Source: Escherichia virus TH57. Taken from it: a stretch of DNA of 64,000 nt. Below the pieces are notes generated by a model. That model had not been told where the DNA came from, ran no database searches, and saw nothing but the letters and a program-made list of their open reading frames with translations. Both the position numbers and the translations under genes were made by a program. Shown piece by piece: positions 2,082 to 28,718 of this stretch. The first letter of the stretch is position 1; each line of letters begins with the position of its first letter. The stretch lies in sequence record MT446422.1; one strand, written 5' to 3'.

Positions 2082-5000
2082 TTACATTTACCTGTGTAGG
2101 ATTAACCGGGTCTCTTGGATTACCAATATCATCTTTAAGACGTTGGTCAACTAATGCTCTCCAATTTGAGAATGTAACAGCCGACTGGTCAAACAGTGGA
2201 CTATATTTTCCACGACGTTGTGACGGTAACAACCCATAGAACATGGAGAAATCATTCTCGGCATCATAATCGGCTGGTAATGGGAATGGTTGACCAGCAT
2301 TAGGAGCGATGTTATATATTGCTTCACCTGTGATAGGGTTTTTCTCAATAGTACCATCAACACCAATCACTGCAACTCGGTCATTCCATTCTGACGGAAT
2401 ACCAGAAGACCATCTATAGTTACTTAATTTATTAATGATTGTCTCGGTGTGTTTAAGAGTCAAACCAACGTTAACAAACATTGTCAGCAACGTAATACCG
2501 ATGAATCCAAATCCAACCGGGTGAACGAATCGCAAAACATCATTACGATAACGAGAGGTTGGAAGGTTTGACTTAATTGTCATTACGTAATAAGAGCGGT
2601 TACGATTAATATAATCGATGTTGTTGCTCAACAACTCTTTACCACGAACACCTTGCACAATCATCCCCTTGAATGAGGTTCTTTCTGATTTAATTTCTTG
2701 CCCAACAATAAAACGTCCCAGGAGGTTATGAATAGTAATACGCCATCTTAATTTACCGTCTTTATAATCGCGCTCCATATAAGTCACATTACTGCGACCA
2801 GTTGCAGTATAAATGGTTTGGCCTACAATGTCTTCACTGATATTATCAGATTCAACTACGATATCATACTCGGTTCCGTTCTTGGATTCGATGTCAATTT
2901 CAACATCTTCATTATACAGCAATTTGAACAGGAATTTATAAGACGCTTCTGTGCCTTTTGTTGCCCAAAAATCAGACTGTCGGGCCTGGAAGAATCGAAC
3001 AGCTTCGTCACGTTTTTCCTTGGAGAGGTAAATGTTGCGTTTGTACATTTCACTCCAGAGGTATTCCCATGCATCTTCCTCGCGTGGATATTGGTTACGA
3101 ATAAGATTCAACAGGTTGTTATAGTATGTACCAGAACCATCACTGATGAACTGCAAATAATATTCACAGAATTTTTCAAATTTACTATCCTGCAAAAGAT
3201 AGCTATCCGGAACCATCTTCGTTAATAATGGCTGCAGGTCAGGGTCTTTTTCCTTATTCTCATTTTCTGGAGTCCATGGAATATCATGTTCCTGGTTTTG
3301 CAGTTCGGCCATAAGCATAATTTCTTTTGGCTTCCAGATGATACGCACTTCATCGCGCACGCGATAGTCAAACTCAAAATAGCCAATTAATTCCCCAGTA
3401 TTTTTATGAAGCATAATCCCGGAGGCATATTTTTTAAAGCCATTGAATTCGATGTTAGGTGCAGTAATCGTTACTTGACCTTTGTTCCAATATTCATGCA
3501 CGATACGTTCCGGGGAAGTTCCACTAAATGTATCGATGATATACTGGTAAAGAACATCGTTATAGACGACCATTGCTCGGTCTGAAGTCGTAATCCAGCA
3601 ACGAGTATCGTCACGTCTTGACCAGTTAAAGAACGGCTCTGCATAGTAAGTCATACGCCCAGGTTTGAACTCTTCAAAGCCAGAATCTTCGCCAGCTCTG
3701 AAACTCATCATCAGGTAATGCTTATCATGTATCCATTGTTCATCGTAAACGTATTTGACTGCTTCGTTAACTTCATCAGGATATTTAAGAGGAAGTTCAG
3801 TATCAGGCTCAACCGAATATTTGAAGTTGCTGGAGCTAAAGAATACTTCGATGCCATCAGTTGACATGCTTGCATAACCATGTTCGATTCGGCGGCGTTC
3901 TTCTTCTGTATTACCAAAAACTCTCGTCCATGTATCAGTAACAGGGTCTAATTTATAAACACCTTTATCCAGAGAGTCAACAACGTTTTCAGGTTTAGTT
4001 GGGTCTTGTCTTTCTTCTTTAACTTCACCTGTAATTAATGCAAACGTATGGCCTTGAACTGAATCCATTTTATAGCAAACTGCTTTAGGGTTCGCCGTAA
4101 TTGTACTGTAACCAGTTTCAAATAGTTTTTCACCAAAAGTCGGAGACCCTGGGGTTGTATCAATCGGCGCATCAGAGGTTTTTGCTTTATATACACGACC
4201 ACGAGCCGCAACATAAATGAACTCATCCGAAACCGTAATAGCTTCTGCTATTTGCGAAATATATGCCGGAAGTCTTGCATAGTTACCGAAGATTTCAATA
4301 TCAAATCCAAGGTTAATATCCGAACCGACTTTAGCAAATGTAATATCTTCAGAACTGAATCGAACATCATCTGCAGACCATCTTATATCGCTTGATTGGC
4401 GACCATAGAATATACGGTCATACCCCAAAACGTAAGTTGTGGTATCAGTCTGGTAATATACAGTTCTTGATACAGGGTTACCGACCCGCTCGTTAAAGAG
4501 TCTTATGTAATACCAGTTCTGGCCTTTGTCATTGGAGACTTTAACCATCGGCTGGAATCGTTCGAACAAATAAAGAACTCCACCGAGTTCAGCAAGCATC
4601 GTGCGGTTTTGGTCAACACAAACTGCTTGAATCGGTCCCTGGATTTCGTGATATTGGTCTTCTTGTAAAACATAGTTCGAGATTGAAGACAAATGAGAAT
4701 ATGCAGAGGTCCATGTAAAGTCTTCGGTCATCAATGAGGCCATAATAGCATCATTGTTAAAGTTGATATATCTCTGATTGTTATTGGTGAATTTTTCTTC
4801 AATGAATTTATTAGCCAAACTAAATTCGCGCATATGTTCAAAAGTATACGCGTTTGTTGCAAAGGTTTCAAATTCTTCGGTGTATTCCCAATCAGACCGT
4901 TCGAAGCCCATTGCCGCAACAGACACGCGCATCTGATAACTTGTTAACGGACGAATATATTCCTGCTCGAACCATTCATTGTCTGCGGTATAACCAAGGT

Positions 5001-13758: not shown

Positions 13759-14091
13759 ATGAACATCAAGACTTACAACGAGTTTTTAGCCGAATCCGCC
13801 ATCAATGAGACCAAATCAATTGATGATAGTGAAGGCTCTCTGAAATTTGGTTTAACCAAAAATGCAGATGGTGTTTTCTTTCAGATTGGTAATGAACGTT
13901 TTCAAACGTCCAAATATTCCAAAGCTGCAGTTGAAGCTGTCCTGAAATCTGGTGGCAAGTGGAAAGGCAAAGAAGGTACTAAAGAAATTGGTATCGCTGT
14001 TGACGGCGGTATGGCTTATTTTAAAATTGGCGATGAACAATTTATTATGTCTGCTCGCGGACGTAAAGAACTGGCAAAACTTTATAAATAA
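13759..14091 (+). CDS. internal protein (IP) with capsid targeting sequence
   Basis: N-terminus MNIKTYNEFLAES resembles the T4 IP capsid targeting sequence MKTYQEFIAE with an x-E prohead-protease site; PeSL-type promoter upstream. Confidence 0.6.
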   Translation: MNIKTYNEFLAESAINETKSIDDSEGSLKFGLTKNADGVFFQIGNERFQTSKYSKAAVEAVLKSGGKWKGKEGTKEIGIAVDGGMAYFKIGDEQFIMSARGRKELAKLYK

Positions 14092-14099
14092 GGTTTCTT

Positions 14100-14372
14100 A
14101 TGAAAACTTTCAATGAATTTTTCAACGAGTCCCAACTGAATGAAGAAGTAAAAATTAGTAAAGCAGTCAAAGCTATGATTGACAATATCAATCACCTGTA
14201 TAGCATTGACTTGACTGACCATATAACAATTGGTAACAAACGCAACTTTTTCGCGTTTGACATTTCAGAACTTGACCAGAACCAAATTAATAACATTGAG
14301 CGTTTTGCCAATGACAAGGGTCTCCGCCATGAGACAGCTGGTTATAAAAAATATGCAATTTATCTAAAATAG
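14100..14372 (+). CDS. internal protein (IP) with capsid targeting sequence
   Basis: N-terminus MKTFNEFFNES; TATAAATA late-promoter motif upstream at about 14083. Confidence 0.6.
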   Translation: MKTFNEFFNESQLNEEVKISKAVKAMIDNINHLYSIDLTDHITIGNKRNFFAFDISELDQNQINNIERFANDKGLRHETAGYKKYAIYLK

Positions 14373-14380
14373 GATTTCAA

Positions 14381-14680
14381 ATGCAAACTTTTCATGAATT
14401 TTTGGTAGAAAATAATTACCTGGCAGAAGCAAAAACCTGGCCTCTGGGCCTTCAGAAGAAAAACACCTACAAATGGGTTGACTTCAAAGACAAAGGCGAC
14501 GCTGAAGACTTTGACCAGCTGCGTAAAAATGGTTATACTTTCCTTGACTCAAACTATAACAAAATTACCTCATTTAGTCAGAAATCCAGCATCGCATATA
14601 TTGAAACTGGTAAAAACACCCCTAAGAACATCACTGACGACTTCGCAGCTTATGGCGTGATTCGCGGTTCAAAAATGTAA
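14381..14680 (+). CDS. internal protein (IP) with capsid targeting sequence
   Basis: N-terminus MQTFHEFLVEN. Confidence 0.55.
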   Translation: MQTFHEFLVENNYLAEAKTWPLGLQKKNTYKWVDFKDKGDAEDFDQLRKNGYTFLDSNYNKITSFSQKSSIAYIETGKNTPKNITDDFAAYGVIRGSKM

Positions 14681-14716
14681 TGTACATGATGGGATAGTTG
14701 CAGTATAATTATCTCA
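14680..14716 (+). promoter_or_regulatory. early promoter cassette (PeSL-like, type A)
   Basis: -35 GTACAT, -10 TATAAT flanked by GGGATAG / TATCTC; conserved downstream CATCAACTACTGGAG leader. Confidence 0.55.
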
Positions 14717-14735
14717 TCAACTACTGGAGCTACTA

Positions 14736-15014
14736 ATGAAAACTTATCAAGAATTTATTAACGAATCAATTAGTCACCCGGATATGCTGGAAGACCTGAA
14801 AGGACATCTGATGGTTAAGGCCAAACCGGTTGATGGTGGCGCATTTGAGTTGTTTCTTGTTAAAGGCGAAAACGGTCCTGATAACAAGAAAGTTTCAGCA
14901 ATGATGTTGACTAAAGGTTACAAAGTCAGTTCTTCCTGGAATGCTCCATTCACTTACGCGGTAAGCCCTCGTGAACTGAAAAAAGTTAAAGCTGGACAAT
15001 ATACAAAAATTTAG
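14736..15014 (+). CDS. internal protein (IP) with capsid targeting sequence
   Basis: N-terminus MKTYQEFINES; early promoter cassette upstream. Confidence 0.65.
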   Translation: MKTYQEFINESISHPDMLEDLKGHLMVKAKPVDGGAFELFLVKGENGPDNKKVSAMMLTKGYKVSSSWNAPFTYAVSPRELKKVKAGQYTKI

Positions 15015-15050
15015 TGTACGTGATGAGATAGTTGTAGTATAATTATCCCA
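15012..15050 (+). promoter_or_regulatory. early promoter cassette (PeSL-like, type A)
   Basis: -35 GTGTAC, -10 TATAAT flanked by GAGATAG / TATCCC. Confidence 0.55.
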
Positions 15051-15068
15051 TCAACTACTGGAGACAAC

Positions 15069-15302
15069 ATGAAAACTTATCAAGAATTTATTAATGAAAC
15101 TGCTGATGTTAAAGTGCAATTCATTTACACCGGCAAGAAAGATAAAATGGGCGAAATGCCTTATGGAACTCTCCGCGACGCCTTAGATAATTACGGTCAG
15201 CTCGGCGGTGAAGAGTTTGGGGACTATTTTGTTATCCAGGGTCCAGCAGAAGTTATCGAGAAATGGGCTAAACAGTATAAATCAATTTTCCGTAAAAAAT
15301 AA
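15069..15302 (+). CDS. internal protein (IP) with capsid targeting sequence
   Basis: N-terminus MKTYQEFINET; early promoter cassette upstream. Confidence 0.65.
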   Translation: MKTYQEFINETADVKVQFIYTGKKDKMGEMPYGTLRDALDNYGQLGGEEFGDYFVIQGPAEVIEKWAKQYKSIFRKK

Positions 15303-15340
15303 GTGTACTTTTAGATATGGGATAGTGTATAATTATCCCA
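15301..15340 (+). promoter_or_regulatory. early promoter cassette (PeSL-like, type A)
   Basis: -35 GTGTAC, -10 TATAAT flanked by GGGATAG / TATCCC. Confidence 0.55.
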
Positions 15341-15361
15341 TCAACTACTGAGGAGAATAAA

Positions 15362-17259: not shown

Positions 17260-17292
17260 TAGTGTACATCCGAATTGACCGGGTGCATAATG
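17260..17292 (+). promoter_or_regulatory. early promoter cassette (type B, CATAATGATTCCATACTGAGTTAC leader)
   Basis: -35 GTGTAC, 18 bp spacer, -10 CATAAT; same cassette recurs at about 18148, 18676 and 37240. Confidence 0.5.
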
Positions 17293-17342
17293 ATTCCATA
17301 CTGAGTTACACACTGAATCAAACAAAACTTTGGAGAAATAAA

Positions 17343-17768
17343 ATGAACTTTCTGACCCTGACCTCTGCATTCTCTGTTACCCGCATCACTAACAAAATGG
17401 TTGCTGACGAAGTATGTGAAATCTGCATTCGTGAAGATGCACTTATCCATCTGACTTCAACCCAGATTGTTGCCATCGCCAAGTCCCTTAATTCTGAACT
17501 GAAGGTAAACACCAAACAGTCAAAAGAGTCCATCATTGAATTAATCCAAGCTGAAATGATTGAATTCCCAATTGAAGAAGTTAAAGAAGAAAAAATCCAG
17601 TCCAAATCTGGTAATGCTCGTGACATTTGCTTCCAGGCATTTGCAGAAATTGATATGGCAGATGGTGCAGCTCGTCGCGCTCTGATTGATGTTCTGGTTA
17701 ACACCCATGATATCAAAAAGACTGTTGTTCAGTCCTATGCTTCTAACTTCCGCAAAGCTCAAAAATAA
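17343..17768 (+). CDS. hypothetical protein, paralog of 18222..18665 (shared C-terminal domain)
   Basis: ORF track 17262..17768; ATG at 17343 after promoter cassette and GGAG RBS; C-terminus MADGAARRALIDVLV...SYASNFRK. Confidence 0.55.
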   Translation: MNFLTLTSAFSVTRITNKMVADEVCEICIREDALIHLTSTQIVAIAKSLNSELKVNTKQSKESIIELIQAEMIEFPIEEVKEEKIQSKSGNARDICFQAFAEIDMADGAARRALIDVLVNTHDIKKTVVQSYASNFRKAQK

Positions 17769-17778
17769 TTGAGAAAAG

Positions 17779-17815
17779 TGTTTTACTTCCAGGTGGGATA
17801 GTGTATAATTATCCC
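17779..17815 (+). promoter_or_regulatory. early promoter cassette (hybrid A/B)
   Basis: -35 GTTTTAC, -10 TATAAT flanked by GGGATAG / TATCCC, followed by type-B leader ATACTGAGTTA. Confidence 0.5.
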
Positions 17816-17851
17816 ATACTGAGTTAACAAATAAAACACTGGAGAATAAAA

Positions 17852-18148
17852 ATGTTTAACGCACCTGCATGGCACGCTACCCAAGCTCAAGAAGAAAACA
17901 AAGCAATCATTTCTGCTAAAATTGAAGCTCAACTGAATGAATTGTGCGAAACTGCTTCTGAAGAAGTTGTTGCAATCATCAAACAGTATCCTGCATCCAA
18001 CTATTCCCTGGCATGCATCAAAACAGAAATGGTTAACTTGTGGCGCAAGAATAAGAAAACTTTCTTAGGTATGCAGTACCAGGCAATCGCGTCTGCGGTA
18101 GTAAACATGTATGACTTTGAAGTTTATTTCCCAACTTCTGAAAATTAA
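17852..18148 (+). CDS. hypothetical protein
   Basis: 98 aa ORF after a promoter cassette. Confidence 0.5.
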   Translation: MFNAPAWHATQAQEENKAIISAKIEAQLNELCETASEEVVAIIKQYPASNYSLACIKTEMVNLWRKNKKTFLGMQYQAIASAVVNMYDFEVYFPTSEN

Positions 18149-18221
18149 TGTGTACTTTGGAATTTAACTAAGACATAATGATTCCATACTGAGTTACCAA
18201 ATAAACAAACGGGATAATAAA

Positions 18222-18665
18222 ATGAAAACTTCAAAACTGGTTAAGTACATTAAACTGGCATTAAACAACTCTTCTGAAGCTGAAGCACAATCCGCAGCAC
18301 GTATGTTCTTCAAACGTCTGACAGCTGAAGGTATTTCATTTAACCCGGCAGTATTTGGTATCACTCGTGGCGAAGCTGCTAAACTGGCAACGCTGGCAGG
18401 TAAAATTTTTAAAGGTCTGAATGATGGACAGGTTAAACCAGAAGTTAAACCTACTCCTAAAGCTGAACCAAAAGCTGAACGTAAGGCACCTAAACGCTCC
18501 GGCATGAGCAACAAAGATTTATGCTATGATATGTTCAAAACTGTTAATATGTCTAATGGTGCTGCCCGTAGAGCTGTTATTGATATGATTGTGCGTGAGT
18601 TTGGATTCAACAAAGCATCAGTTCAGTCTTATGCTTCCAACTTCCGCAAAGAATTTGAAATTTAA
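18222..18665 (+). CDS. hypothetical protein, paralog of 17343..17768
   Basis: C-terminus MSNGAARRAVIDMIV...SYASNFRK; promoter cassette upstream. Confidence 0.55.
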   Translation: MKTSKLVKYIKLALNNSSEAEAQSAARMFFKRLTAEGISFNPAVFGITRGEAAKLATLAGKIFKGLNDGQVKPEVKPTPKAEPKAERKAPKRSGMSNKDLCYDMFKTVNMSNGAARRAVIDMIVREFGFNKASVQSYASNFRKEFEI

Positions 18666-18671
18666 TTAAAA

Positions 18672-18707
18672 AGGGGGTATACAAGCCCCCTGCTTTAAGG
18701 CATAATG
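18672..18707 (+). promoter_or_regulatory. terminator hairpin fused to a type-B early promoter
   Basis: AGGGGG-TATACAAG-CCCCCT hairpin; loop GTATAC lies 18 bp upstream of -10 CATAAT. Confidence 0.45.
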
Positions 18708-18747
18708 ATTCCATACTGAGTTACCAAATAAAACACTGGAGAATAAA

Positions 18748-19053
18748 ATGAAATTCATCATCAACCTGGCACTTGTTGACTTTGATAAAACTGGTAATTT
18801 CGCATCTGCTGAAAATATGATTCGTAACACCAAGTTCAAAGTGCAAGTCCAACAGGCGGTAGCAAAAGAGTTCTTTACTGATAAATTAACTAACATTGTT
18901 AATCACCTGAATGTACAAGTTAAATTCACTCGTGAAGCGGAAACTACTGTTGCATTTGATTTTGACTGCCAATACCATGATGAATATGTTCGCCGCATCC
19001 TGGATATTGTGTCTGATGAACTTTACTATGGTGTGCAGGAAAACAAAATCTAA
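18748..19053 (+). CDS. hypothetical protein
   Basis: 101 aa ORF after terminator and promoter cassette. Confidence 0.5.
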   Translation: MKFIINLALVDFDKTGNFASAENMIRNTKFKVQVQQAVAKEFFTDKLTNIVNHLNVQVKFTREAETTVAFDFDCQYHDEYVRRILDIVSDELYYGVQENKI

Positions 19054-25590: not shown

Positions 25591-26041
25591 GAAAAACAAG
25601 GTGAAAGAATTATCTGCTGGCATTATTTTCATGACTGAAGATAAAGAGTTATTCATGGGTCGTGTGACCGGTTCTCGTAAACCAGGTATGCCTGCACACA
25701 AATGGGACATCCCTAAGGGTCATGTTGAAGCTGATGAATCCCCGATTGAAGCTGCTATCCGTGAAACTGAAGAAGAAACTGGGTTTACCCAATATGACCC
25801 AGCATTCTTAAAGGACCTGGGTGAATTTCGTTATTCAGATAATAAAAACCTTCACCTGTTTTTGTACACGGTTCCGGTCGAGCATGAGCAGTTCAGACAT
25901 AGTAAATGCTCTGCCTATCATACCTTCCCGGATGGTAGTTCAGTCCCCGAGTTTGATGCATTTGCTCTGATTAAACCGAGCCAATGGCAATACGTAATGG
26001 GTAAATCGATGTACAAGGTAATGACTCAAATTTTCGGATAA
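25583..26041 (+). CDS. nudE: Nudix hydrolase NudE
   Basis: Nudix box GHVEADESPIEAAIRETEEETG; directly upstream of endolysin e as in T4; ATG at 25583. Confidence 0.85.
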   Translation: MSKKNKVKELSAGIIFMTEDKELFMGRVTGSRKPGMPAHKWDIPKGHVEADESPIEAAIRETEEETGFTQYDPAFLKDLGEFRYSDNKNLHLFLYTVPVEHEQFRHSKCSAYHTFPDGSSVPEFDAFALIKPSQWQYVMGKSMYKVMTQIFG

Positions 26042-26068
26042 TAAATACCCCTATATAAGGGGGGTATT

Positions 26069-26560
26069 ATGAATATATTCGAAATGTTACGCATAGATGA
26101 AGGTTGTAAGTTGGATTTGTACCGTGACACCGAAGGCTTTTGGACCATCGGCATCGGTCAATTGATAACTAAGAACCCATCGAAAGACGTTGCTCGCGCT
26201 GAGCTGGACAAATTAATGGGTCGTGTTTGCAACGGTAGGATTACCCAGATTGAAGCTGAAACCTTGTTTAACCGTTCAGTGGAAAAAGCTAAAGCCGGAA
26301 TCTTGAAACATCCTGTCTTAAAACCTGTTTATGATGTACTGGATGAAGTTCGTCGTTGCGCACTCATTAATATGGTATTCCAAATGGGTGTAGCTGGTGT
26401 AGCTGGTTTTCCTAAGGGGCTGCGATTGCTCAAGGCTAAATCATGGGAAGCTGCTGCTAAGGAACTGGCTGACTCAAGATGGTATAAAGTCCAGACTCCG
26501 AACCGGGCCAAACGAGTTATTGAAACTTTCCGTACTGGAACTTTTGACGCATACAAATGA
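26069..26560 (+). CDS. e: endolysin (T4 lysozyme, gene e)
   Basis: [12 protein letters not shown]...DTEG..TIGIG...PNRAKRVI matches T4 lysozyme closely, with catalytic Glu11/Asp20/Thr26 positions conserved. Confidence 0.95.
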
Positions 26561-26616
26561 GTTTACATCTCCAAATGATAGGGTTATAATGACCCTATCA
26601 ACTACGGAGAACAAAC

Positions 26617-27033
26617 ATGACTCGCATTAATTTAACCCTGGTATCTGAACTCGCTGACCAACATCTTATGGCTGAATATCGTGAACTTCCTCGCGTGTTT
26701 GGTGCTGTTCGTAAGCATGTGCAAAATGGTAAAAAGGTGTCTGACTTTAAAATCCCATCATCTTTTCTTTTAGGGACTGGCCATGTCACCTTCTTTTATG
26801 ATAAGCTTTTGTTCCTTAAAAACAGGCATCAAGAACTTATTGCGGAATGTTTAAAGCGAGGGTTTAACATAAAAGATATTTCTACCCAAGATTTAAATGA
26901 TATTCCTGATGAATGGAAGAATGATTATCAACCATCAATCTGGTCAATTGAAATCAGTCAAGCCAGACTGAATGAGAAAATTTCTCAAAAGCCTACCTGG
27001 TACAAATACTATGGGAAAGCTGTGTACGCTTAA
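26617..27033 (+). CDS. denV: endonuclease V (pyrimidine dimer DNA glycosylase, DenV)
   Basis: [35 protein letters not shown]... matches T4 endo V over its full length; 138 aa. Confidence 0.95.
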
Positions 27034-27081
27034 CTAAAAAGGTTGTATAATGATTTTATCAACCAAACAATGGAATATAAA

Positions 27082-27396
27082 ATGAAAACTTATCAAGAAT
27101 TTATTACTGAATCTACCCAAAAACGTGTTGAAGGCGGTTATGTCTGGATTGAACAATTAACCCCACCAAGTGAAACGAGCACGGGTTCGTGGAAAATTAC
27201 TGTTGATGGCCCTGGTGGAAAACGTAAGACTATTAAAGAAATTAAAGGCTATTATGATGAAGCCAAATCATGGGCTGGTAGTCATGTAATGCAGATTAAA
27301 ATTGCAAACCCGGATAACGTTCATGCGGCAAAAGCATTCCGTCGCATTGGTAATAAACTTTATGATGCGTTTTTGCGTGATTTCCCTAAAGAGTAA
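27082..27396 (+). CDS. internal protein (IP) with capsid targeting sequence
   Basis: ORF track 27043; ATG at 27082 gives MKTYQEFITES; position next to denV as ipII/ipIII in T4. Confidence 0.6.
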   Translation: MKTYQEFITESTQKRVEGGYVWIEQLTPPSETSTGSWKITVDGPGGKRKTIKEIKGYYDEAKSWAGSHVMQIKIANPDNVHAAKAFRRIGNKLYDAFLRDFPKE

Positions 27397-27409
27397 TTAA
27401 AGAGACATT

Positions 27410-27673
27410 ATGAAAACTTATCAAGAATTTATTACTGAATCTGCTAAAGCTCCTACCGGTGCTTTTAAAGTCCGCGCCTTCGCTGGTGATGCTGAAGACT
27501 TTGGCACCATGAAGCGCAATGGTTATTCTTTCTTTGGTGGCGATGGTAAAGAAATTGTTACCTATGCAAAACGCCGCGAAATCGCATTCGTGGTTGCTGG
27601 TAAGAAAGTTGATGTTGACGATATTGAATGGGATTTTGATACCTTTGGTATTGTTTCTGGCGGTAAAGCATAA
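27410..27673 (+). CDS. internal protein (IP) with capsid targeting sequence
   Basis: N-terminus MKTYQEFITESAKA. Confidence 0.65.
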   Translation: MKTYQEFITESAKAPTGAFKVRAFAGDAEDFGTMKRNGYSFFGGDGKEIVTYAKRREIAFVVAGKKVDVDDIEWDFDTFGIVSGGKA

Positions 27674-27675
27674 CT

Positions 27676-27710
27676 GTTTACTTTATGATGGGATAGTGTA
27701 TAATTATCCC
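27676..27710 (+). promoter_or_regulatory. early promoter cassette (PeSL-like, type A)
   Basis: -35 GTTTAC, 17 bp spacer, -10 TATAAT flanked by GGGATAG / TATCCC. Confidence 0.6.
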
Positions 27711-27729
27711 ATCAACTTGGAGCGAATAA

Positions 27730-28029
27730 ATGAAAACTTATCAAGAATTTATTACTGAAGCCAAAGCTCCTAAAGCATTTCAAATTGGGGTTCAGGGTAA
27801 TTTAGACCAACAATACGTTGATGCTATTGTAGCAAGCCTCGGCAAGCAGGGTGTACAAGTGGATTTGGTTGATTTTACTAAAGGTAATACTTTTAATATT
27901 GTCACATCTAAAGGTTCTTTAGCTAAAGTTAAAAAGGCCTTTGGCGTAGCACAAGCATATGAAATCGACCATTCCGAATTGGAAAATAAAGGTCGCCAGA
28001 ACACAATTAAAGGCTCTGGTTCTTTCTAA
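27730..28029 (+). CDS. internal protein (IP) with capsid targeting sequence
   Basis: N-terminus MKTYQEFITEAKA; promoter cassette upstream. Confidence 0.65.
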   Translation: MKTYQEFITEAKAPKAFQIGVQGNLDQQYVDAIVASLGKQGVQVDLVDFTKGNTFNIVTSKGSLAKVKKAFGVAQAYEIDHSELENKGRQNTIKGSGSF

Positions 28030-28190
28030 TAAAGGCAAGCCGGCCCTCTCCTCATGAACGTCGCGTCCTCTGAGTGATGGACCTTTCCCTACCTGTAATA
28101 AGGTCGAGCCCGAGTGCGGTAAGGGGTTTACATTCGGATACATGGACGAATTAATGTGCCAAGGAATGGCCCTACAACTAAGAGACAACT

Positions 28191-28718
28191 ATGAAATTTT
28201 TAACTCCAATTTATCTAACCTTAATGCACGCCTTCGCTGAACGCGCCATTGAACGCTTAGATTCAGACCAATACACCTGGTATGAACCCGCTTCAAGAAT
28301 GCAAGAGTTTGGTACTCTTCGACTTGATGGTGGTCGTCAAACAGGTAAAACAAGTGCCCTTGCACAGTTCGCTGCGGATTGGGTTTCCAAGGGTAATGAT
28401 GTGATTGTTATGTCGAGTTCTTCACATCGCTCCCGAGAAATCTGTGATATAATAAAGCGGGTTTCTAAGGCGCAACCACATCTTAATGTTGAGCGACCTG
28501 GTTTTGTTGTATATGATACTGTTCGTTCATTTTTAGACGAAGATAATTTCCATAAGTACCGTGGATTGCGTTTTACGCGTCTTTTAATCATTATTGAAGA
28601 ACCTATTCGCCTCCCTACAATGGATAAGTTCTATGAAGCTTATCAGGTAATGATGAATAAATTTATGTGTCAAGGTGATAAGCCTTTGCCGTTATTCTTT
28701 GTGATAGGAATGCAATAA
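28191..28718 (+). CDS. small P-loop NTPase-like protein
   Basis: Walker A-like GGRQTGKTS and Walker B-like LLIIIEE. Confidence 0.5.
   Translation: MKFLTPIYLTLMHAFAERAIERLDSDQYTWYEPASRMQEFGTLRLDGGRQTGKTSALAQFAADWVSKGNDVIVMSSSSHRSREICDIIKRVSKAQPHLNVERPGFVVYDTVRSFLDEDNFHKYRGLRFTRLLIIIEEPIRLPTMDKFYEAYQVMMNKFMCQGDKPLPLFFVIGMQ

Follow-up and report, generated by a model that had tools for sequence, protein, structure and literature searches.

What are the three small genes that follow denV in this phage, which open with the same peptide and continue into unrelated bodies, and how does such an array come about? To address this question, we analysed a window of 64,000 nt from Escherichia virus TH57 (record MT446422.1), and all positions below are coordinates in that window. 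It comes from a Gaprivervirus-like relative of T4, about 94% identical to SP18 and VR7, two members of the genus Gaprivervirus in the Tevenvirinae. In fact, megablast with 26000-28300 found 116 phage records, with Shigella phage SP18 (94.5%) and Escherichia phage VR7 (94.0%) at the top. We read the three genes, here called B1, B2 and B3, as T4-type internal protein (IP) genes of the Ip10, RB69ORF125c-like and Ip7 families, with a probability of about 0.85. The locus is laid out as follows:

26069-26560, plus strand: lysozyme gene e.
26617-27033, plus strand: denV (endonuclease V; Pfam Pyr_excise, E 1e-15), the conserved upstream anchor of the array.
27082-27396, plus strand: B1, IP gene of the Ip10 family, 104 aa; leader at 27082-27111.
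27410-27673, plus strand: B2, IP gene of the RB69ORF125c-like family, 87 aa; leader at 27410-27439.
27730-28029, plus strand: B3, IP gene of the Ip7 family, 99 aa; leader at 27730-27759.
28030-28190, plus strand: conserved non-coding element, a 161-nt spacer that forms the 3' bound of the array.
28191-28718, plus strand: vs.8, 175 aa.

The first-pass annotation had set the cluster at 27082-28029 and next to denV. Both statements are exact: the interval runs from the first ATG to the last stop codon, and the first IP ORF begins 48 nt past the end of denV. Its equation of this site with that of T4 ipII/ipIII was mistaken. The T4 pair lies between e and denV, whereas the window cluster lies between denV and vs.8; along the direction of transcription, T4 reads e, ipIII, ipII, denV, vs.8 and the window e, denV, B1, B2, B3, vs.8. 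IP genes of relatives are found on either or both flanks of denV. T4-type phages have two polymorphic IP loci, one beside e/denV and the other beside 57B/tRNA genes, and B1-B3 are small accessory ORFs in the former.

The three genes are already known and in part already named. SP18 and VR7 carry the same three in the same order, annotated as Ip10, "internal head protein" (RB69ORF125c-like) and Ip7/"internal head protein", the ip7 of VR7 being the positional orthologue of B3. B1 is 100% identical to SP18 Ip10 over all of its 104 aa (the SP18 entry has 108 aa), about 71% identical to the gene annotated ip10 in PP01, and matches phrog_3966 (E 2.5e-32); it belongs to the Ip10 family. B3 matches phrog_2667, "internal head protein", over its full length (E 8e-43) and belongs to the Ip7 family, which has 21 cluster representatives. 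When leader-less bodies were searched by tblastn against 50,697 phage records, B1 was found in 189 (some of these matches annotated ip10), B2 in 205 and B3 in 278, in phages of Escherichia, Shigella, Salmonella, Klebsiella, Enterobacter and Citrobacter. Genes of CJ20, VR20 and TH44 match the B2 and B3 bodies at 95-100% identity. Each part of the locus finds its best match in a different phage, at 100% amino acid identity throughout: denV in VR20, the B1 and B2 bodies in CJ20, the B3 body in TH44. Thus, the locus is a new mosaic of known parts, and the stretch 26617-28029 is absent as such from the phage collection.

That the bodies are unrelated to one another, as had been claimed, is borne out by the leader-trimmed comparisons: BLASTP gave no match among them, and the hhalign probability was at most 0.4%. 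B2 and B3 both match phrog_2667, and we considered them as remote homologues; hhalign on leader-trimmed alignments rejected this. The common match comes from the leader and from AKAP residues that follow it, the two proteins reading ES-AKAPTGAF and E-AKAPKAF around and past the cleavage site. Pfam held no match above cut-off for B1, B2 or B3, and the matches of a PDB sequence search (HLA, a DARPin, Rab18) were at chance level. An AlphaFold (AF2) model of B3 has a mean pLDDT of 75 (80-91 in the core) and the order beta-alpha-beta-beta-alpha-beta-alpha, a predicted ferredoxin-like fold. Its only significant match in BFVD is the Ip7 protein of phage MX01 (E 8e-11), and the fold searches gave no functional clue; the model of B2 (pLDDT 50) was unusable. 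An exhaustive profile search with the B2 family returned about eight small proteins or fragments, of which the five full-length ones inspected all start CTS-like, and no homologue clearly without a leader. Long TIG-domain and EF-hand repeat proteins also appeared; we rejected them as additive-score artefacts of repetitive sequence, as they match unrelated Pfam families too and contain no stretch that passes. Literature searches on Ip7/Ip10 and on vs.8/denV gave only unrelated papers.

The common start is as it had been described: B1 and B2 begin with MKTYQEFITES and B3 with MKTYQEFITEA. In fact, all three genes share their first 30 nt (ATGAAAACTTATCAAGAATTTATTACTGAA) exactly, down to every synonymous site. 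The ATGAAAACTTATCAAGAATTTATTACTGAA pattern, allowing up to three mismatches, has five occurrences in the window, two of them outside the cluster (14736 and 15069), and none in 100 shuffles, so the repeat does not arise by chance. MKTYQEFITE is identical at 9 of 10 positions to the capsid targeting sequence (CTS) of T4 IPII and IPIII (MKTYQEFIAE), and we class it as a CTS. It ends in I-T-E, followed by Ser in B1 and B2 and by Ala in B3, which fits the I-x-E site of the gp21 prohead protease; at the level of sequence motif, all three are gp21 sites (L/I-x-E, cut after Glu).

Across phages the leader follows the consensus M-K-T-[YF]-x-E-F-[ILM]-x-E-[AS] (49 family/N-terminus combinations in 19 body families), a pattern partly shaped by the regular expression that collected the ORFs, even if the residues found are much narrower than that expression allowed. 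Glu10 is present in 49/49 leaders, and the next residue is Ala or Ser in 40. At the DNA level the leader takes 56 distinct 30-nt forms, with 80 synonymous differences between their codons, which points to selection on the peptide. The peptide is thus conserved across phages, and its copies are homogenised within one genome.

The genes also carry repeated signals upstream, where all promoter and ribosome-site calls are consensus matches:

26562-26602, plus strand: early-promoter-like site before denV (TTTACA-17-TATAAT, 11/12 matches, hairpin round the -10 hexamer).
27028-27081, plus strand: signal region upstream of B1 (MotA-box-like GCTTAA-N12-TATAAT, a degenerate TATAAT..ATCAAC copy, GGAA Shine-Dalgarno-like).
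27677-27729, plus strand: PeSL-like cassette before B3 (TTTACT-16-TATAAT, hairpin GGGATA..TATCCC, ATCAAC, GGAG Shine-Dalgarno).

At the denV and B3 sites a short hairpin holds the -10 hexamer in its loop, and ATCAAC and a GGAG ribosome site come after it. The same kind of repeat (GTnTAC, 17 nt, TATAAT in a GGGATA/TATCCC hairpin, ATCAAC or ATACTGAG, GGAG) stands before small ORFs at 14670-14729, 15004-15063, 15292-15346, 17262-18748, 26562-26602 and 27663-27717. The B3 cassette falls in three of our repeat families (D1, D6, D7), and 27 nt of it (27690-27716) recur unchanged at 15319-15345. The window has nine copies of TATAAT-N6-ATCAAC where 0.9 would be expected, and the two IP regions hold six of the nine. 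Such a promoter/stem-loop cassette (PeSL) is thus found before denV and B3 and in degenerate form before B1, and is absent before B2. B2 starts 13 nt past the B1 stop and lacks its own promoter-like site, so the two genes are probably transcribed together. There is no exact late promoter (TATAAATA) within the cluster, and this counts against the IP reading because IPs must be made during prohead assembly.

How stable is such an array? For this we took the DNA round denV homologues from IMG/VR and GenBank relatives and listed all ORFs with a leader-like start. In 35 T4-like loci, 4 kb on either side of denV hold 19 BLAST body families, at 0-4 cassettes per locus. Families are not tied to one place: IPIII-like and Ip7 genes lie on different sides of denV in different phages, and some families that adjoin denV in one phage are in the first IP cluster of this window. 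Among 17 Gaprivervirus-level genomes whose flanks are more than 90% identical, 12 different arrangements occur. Downstream of denV, these 17 genomes show six of the seven non-empty subsets of {Ip10, B2-type, Ip7}: all three genes, the three pairs, B2-type alone and Ip7 alone. Four junctions could be mapped:

VR26: the B2 upstream region and leader are joined to the Ip7 body; the B2 body is lost.
TH15: the B1 upstream region is joined to the B2 body; the B1 body is lost.
P8: the B1 upstream region is joined to the Ip7 body; the B1 and B2 bodies are lost.
EAWsc9: the B1 upstream region is followed by a B3-type leader end and then the B2 body, a mosaic.

Each of these crossovers maps to the leader-coding repeat or to the few codons that the genes share just after it, which is direct evidence that the repeat is a recombination substrate. 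The 27028-27081 block is accordingly fused to different bodies in TH15, P8 and EAWsc9. The proposal of a hypervariable cassette locus, for which a comparison across related phages had been suggested, is therefore supported: turnover is directly visible in the 12 arrangements, and several deletion junctions lie exactly in the CTS repeat. Repoila et al. (EMBO J, 1994) reportedly proposed recombination at the leader repeat already, together with a conserved upstream signal block. As far as later papers quote that work, it has "at least 10" IPs sharing the leader (PMC3012670, PMC12373910).

One Ip7 allele departs from the common start. In VR7 (extract 4170-4200), VR25 and TH15, the gene begins MLTYQEF (ATGTTAACT). 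In VR7 and TH15, about 29 nt of the cassette upstream of this allele are missing, so that a -10-like TATAAT overlaps the start codon.

On its 3' side the array ends at 28030-28190, which has 50% G+C against about 38% around it. By blastn, exactly one copy is present in each of 45 of the T4-like denV loci, T4 included. It lies directly after denV if no cassette follows, as in T4, and otherwise after the cassette array. In three loci it lies before an Ip7 gene, which explains the spurious "MCQGMAPFNLNLTILGYK" N-terminal extensions of some Ip7 entries in databases. The element is more conserved than its neighbours: in three loci it keeps 86% nucleotide identity, against only 62% for the denV protein. 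We rejected it as coding sequence: T4 and the window do not share a reading frame here, and TAATAA occurs in the core. We also rejected a tRNA or known RNA, with no ARAGORN match and no Rfam match up to E 10.

The element is probably a structured RNA or DNA element, as judged from an alignment of 23 sequences. Five proposed helices, derived from those same sequences, are paired in 92.5% of cells, against 18-47% when the partners are slid by 1-3 columns. Nine pairs are changed on both sides, against 4.8 +/- 1.2 in shuffles (0/500 shuffles reach nine), these double changes probably tracing to two or three events. The outer helix, for example, alternates between AAAGG/CCTTT, AAAGC/GCTTT and GGGAA/TTCCC. 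The fold of the single sequence is no better than that of shuffles (z 0.05). It is not known as an RNA family. As an RNA it could act in regulation or processing, on the array or on vs.8; alternatively, it could be the downstream homology arm in cassette exchange. The denV-side IP locus might be a bounded array, in which effector bodies are swapped by crossovers in the 30-nt leader repeat on the 5' side and the apparently structured 28030-28190 closes the 3' side, a picture that we find rather improbable.

The gene behind the element, vs.8, deserves a comment of its own. In T4 its annotated CDS (219 aa) seems to begin some 40 codons too early. Homologues start at the internal Met of MRTFLTGPY, and the extension (NC_000866 64792-64912, minus strand; locus extract 2293-2413) covers the conserved non-coding element. 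The window vs.8 contains GGRQTGKTS, which resembles a Walker A motif, and matches P-loop NTPase and terminase-N families weakly, below threshold (E 0.005-0.07). In some GenBank records the gene is mislabelled as "internal head protein IpIII" or "terminase-6 domain protein".

The window holds a first IP cluster at 13759-15302. It has five leader-bearing ORFs, not two, which start with these leaders:

13759: MNIKTYNEFLAE.
14100: MKTFNEFFNE.
14381: MQTFHEFLVE.
14736: MKTYQEFINE.
15069: MKTYQEFINE.

The families of ORFs 13759 and 14100 adjoin denV in other phages. The bodies of B1-B3 had been called unrelated to this cluster; this fails for the middle gene, since B2 has a paralogue at 14381-14680. 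The two are 34% identical over 61 aa (E 9e-14) and conserve motifs that include GDAEDF and NGY-F, and the leader of the paralogue has diverged. None of the eight leader-bearing bodies in the window resembles T4 IPI, IPII or IPIII.

What would such proteins do? By analogy with T4, the products of B1-B3 are very probably packaged and processed IPs. The leader would dock each protein into the scaffolding core of the prohead, and gp21 would then cut after Glu10 (I-T-E / S or A) to leave mature proteins of 94, 77 and 89 residues. The head would retain hundreds of copies alongside the DNA and release them into the cell on infection; it is from T4 that we extend to B1-B3 the status of injected effectors. 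There, the CTS sends even foreign proteins to the core, gp21 trims a short peptide from the N-terminus of IPs, and each head keeps about 360 copies of every IP, which are injected (PMC9958956, PMC3012670). Genes for gp20, gp67, gp68, the gp21 protease, gp22, gp23 and Inh are present in the close relative VR7, so this phage probably has a scaffolding core and protease as well. The predicted mature products have 10.6 kDa and pI 9.6 for B1 (94 aa), 8.3 kDa and pI 6.2 for B2 (77 aa), and 9.5 kDa and pI 9.3 for B3 (89 aa).

Inside the host, each mature protein may, by analogy, bind and block one host defence protein, and we lean towards anti-defence inhibition as the role of B1-B3. The leading target class would be the GmrSD-type type IV restriction enzymes, whose substrate is modified T-even DNA. 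They lead because all three T4 IPs inhibit them, each a different variant: Ip1, Ip2 and Ip3 each act on a distinct GmrSD-type type IV restriction enzyme, with no cross-protection (PMC12373910). One cassette for one host nuclease variant, our best guess on this analogy, would also explain the turnover of the array, in which relatives gain, lose and fuse cassettes by recombination within the leader-coding repeat. The mature bodies of B1-B3 have no homology to the GmrSD inhibitors IPI, IPII and IPIII, so the anti-restriction role is not transferable by homology, and type IV restriction enzymes are a tentative proposal for their targets, slightly short of an even bet.

The same lack of resemblance to the three T4 GmrSD inhibitors fits proteins that are packaged and injected and act on something else. 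That could be a different defence system, a nuclease of the host, or its transcription or translation; Alt, an enzyme co-packaged in T4, would be comparable. That one array holds three unrelated folds suggests that the targets differ, and the predicted fold of B3 is a generic ferredoxin-like/RRM/ACT-like one that elsewhere binds RNA or small ligands. We regard this as a real possibility, still on the improbable side of even.

An older view of IPs would make the packaged proteins basic filler that neutralises or organises the head DNA, with no specific target. The basic mature B1 and B3 would suit it, as would T4 IPs, which are embedded in the packaged DNA (PMC3012670). However, the mature form of B2 has a near-neutral pI, T4 can assemble without its IPs (PMC9958956), and close relatives thrive on any subset of the three genes, or on just one, which fits an accessory host-range function better than a structural need. 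We consider the filler explanation improbable.

It is highly improbable that the shared 5' end is only a mobile expression module for early, cytoplasmic, unpackaged proteins, for although the three leader copies agree at every synonymous site, the upstream promoter/stem-loop cassettes are repeated too and the promoter-like sites found are all of early or middle type, the peptide persists from phage to phage as its codons drift (the 80 synonymous differences), it nearly equals an experimentally defined T4 CTS (9/10), it ends in a protease motif followed by Ala or Ser in 40/49, and B2 has the leader without any upstream cassette.

Packaged, processed IPs thus remain our preferred reading, one that adds little as a discovery, as the exact genes are annotated in GenBank relatives. 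Knowledge of IPs, of their targeting leader and of polymorphism at the two IP loci goes back to the 1990s. The practical value lies in a pointer to host-panel screens of the kind that assigned the targets of Ip2 and Ip3: Ip7, Ip10 and the RB69ORF125c-like proteins are ready candidates because they are widespread, unrelated to the T4 GmrSD blockers and have no known target. The mapped leader-to-leader junctions, in turn, are a clean natural example of cassette loss and fusion.

How does the locus compare with known systems? It is closest to the annotated Ip7 (T2/JS98), Ip10 (phage Pol/PP01) and RB69ORF125c-like genes of SP18, VR7, VR20 and VR25, which are orthologues in the same order and position; nothing of substance differs. 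With T4 IPII/IPIII (and IPI) it shares a near-identical leader that ends in the gp21 cleavage motif, small non-essential tandem ORFs beside denV and e, and a second IP locus near tRNA genes. It differs from T4 in bodies without similarity to IPI, IPII or IPIII, in an array that runs from denV to vs.8 instead of from e to denV, and in having three genes where T4 has two. DarA/DarB and Hdf of phage P1 are also loaded into the capsid during assembly, delivered with the DNA, and disarm host restriction; their proteins and packaging signal are unrelated, so that the likeness is functional only. Finally, PeSLs are promoter/stem-loop cassettes linked to modular shuffling in T4-type genomes (PMC2839356, Arbiol et al. 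2010; PMC4122927, Comeau et al. 2014). As in those cassettes, the window has a repeated putative early promoter and hairpin directly upstream of small accessory ORFs, its -35 hexamer fits the TTTACW...N17...TAYWAT form reported for the T4/PST pair, and deletions between repeats are seen in relatives. Unlike in the PeSL case, however, the mapped junctions lie in the coding leader (CTS) and not in the promoter cassette, which makes the leader itself the main crossover site.
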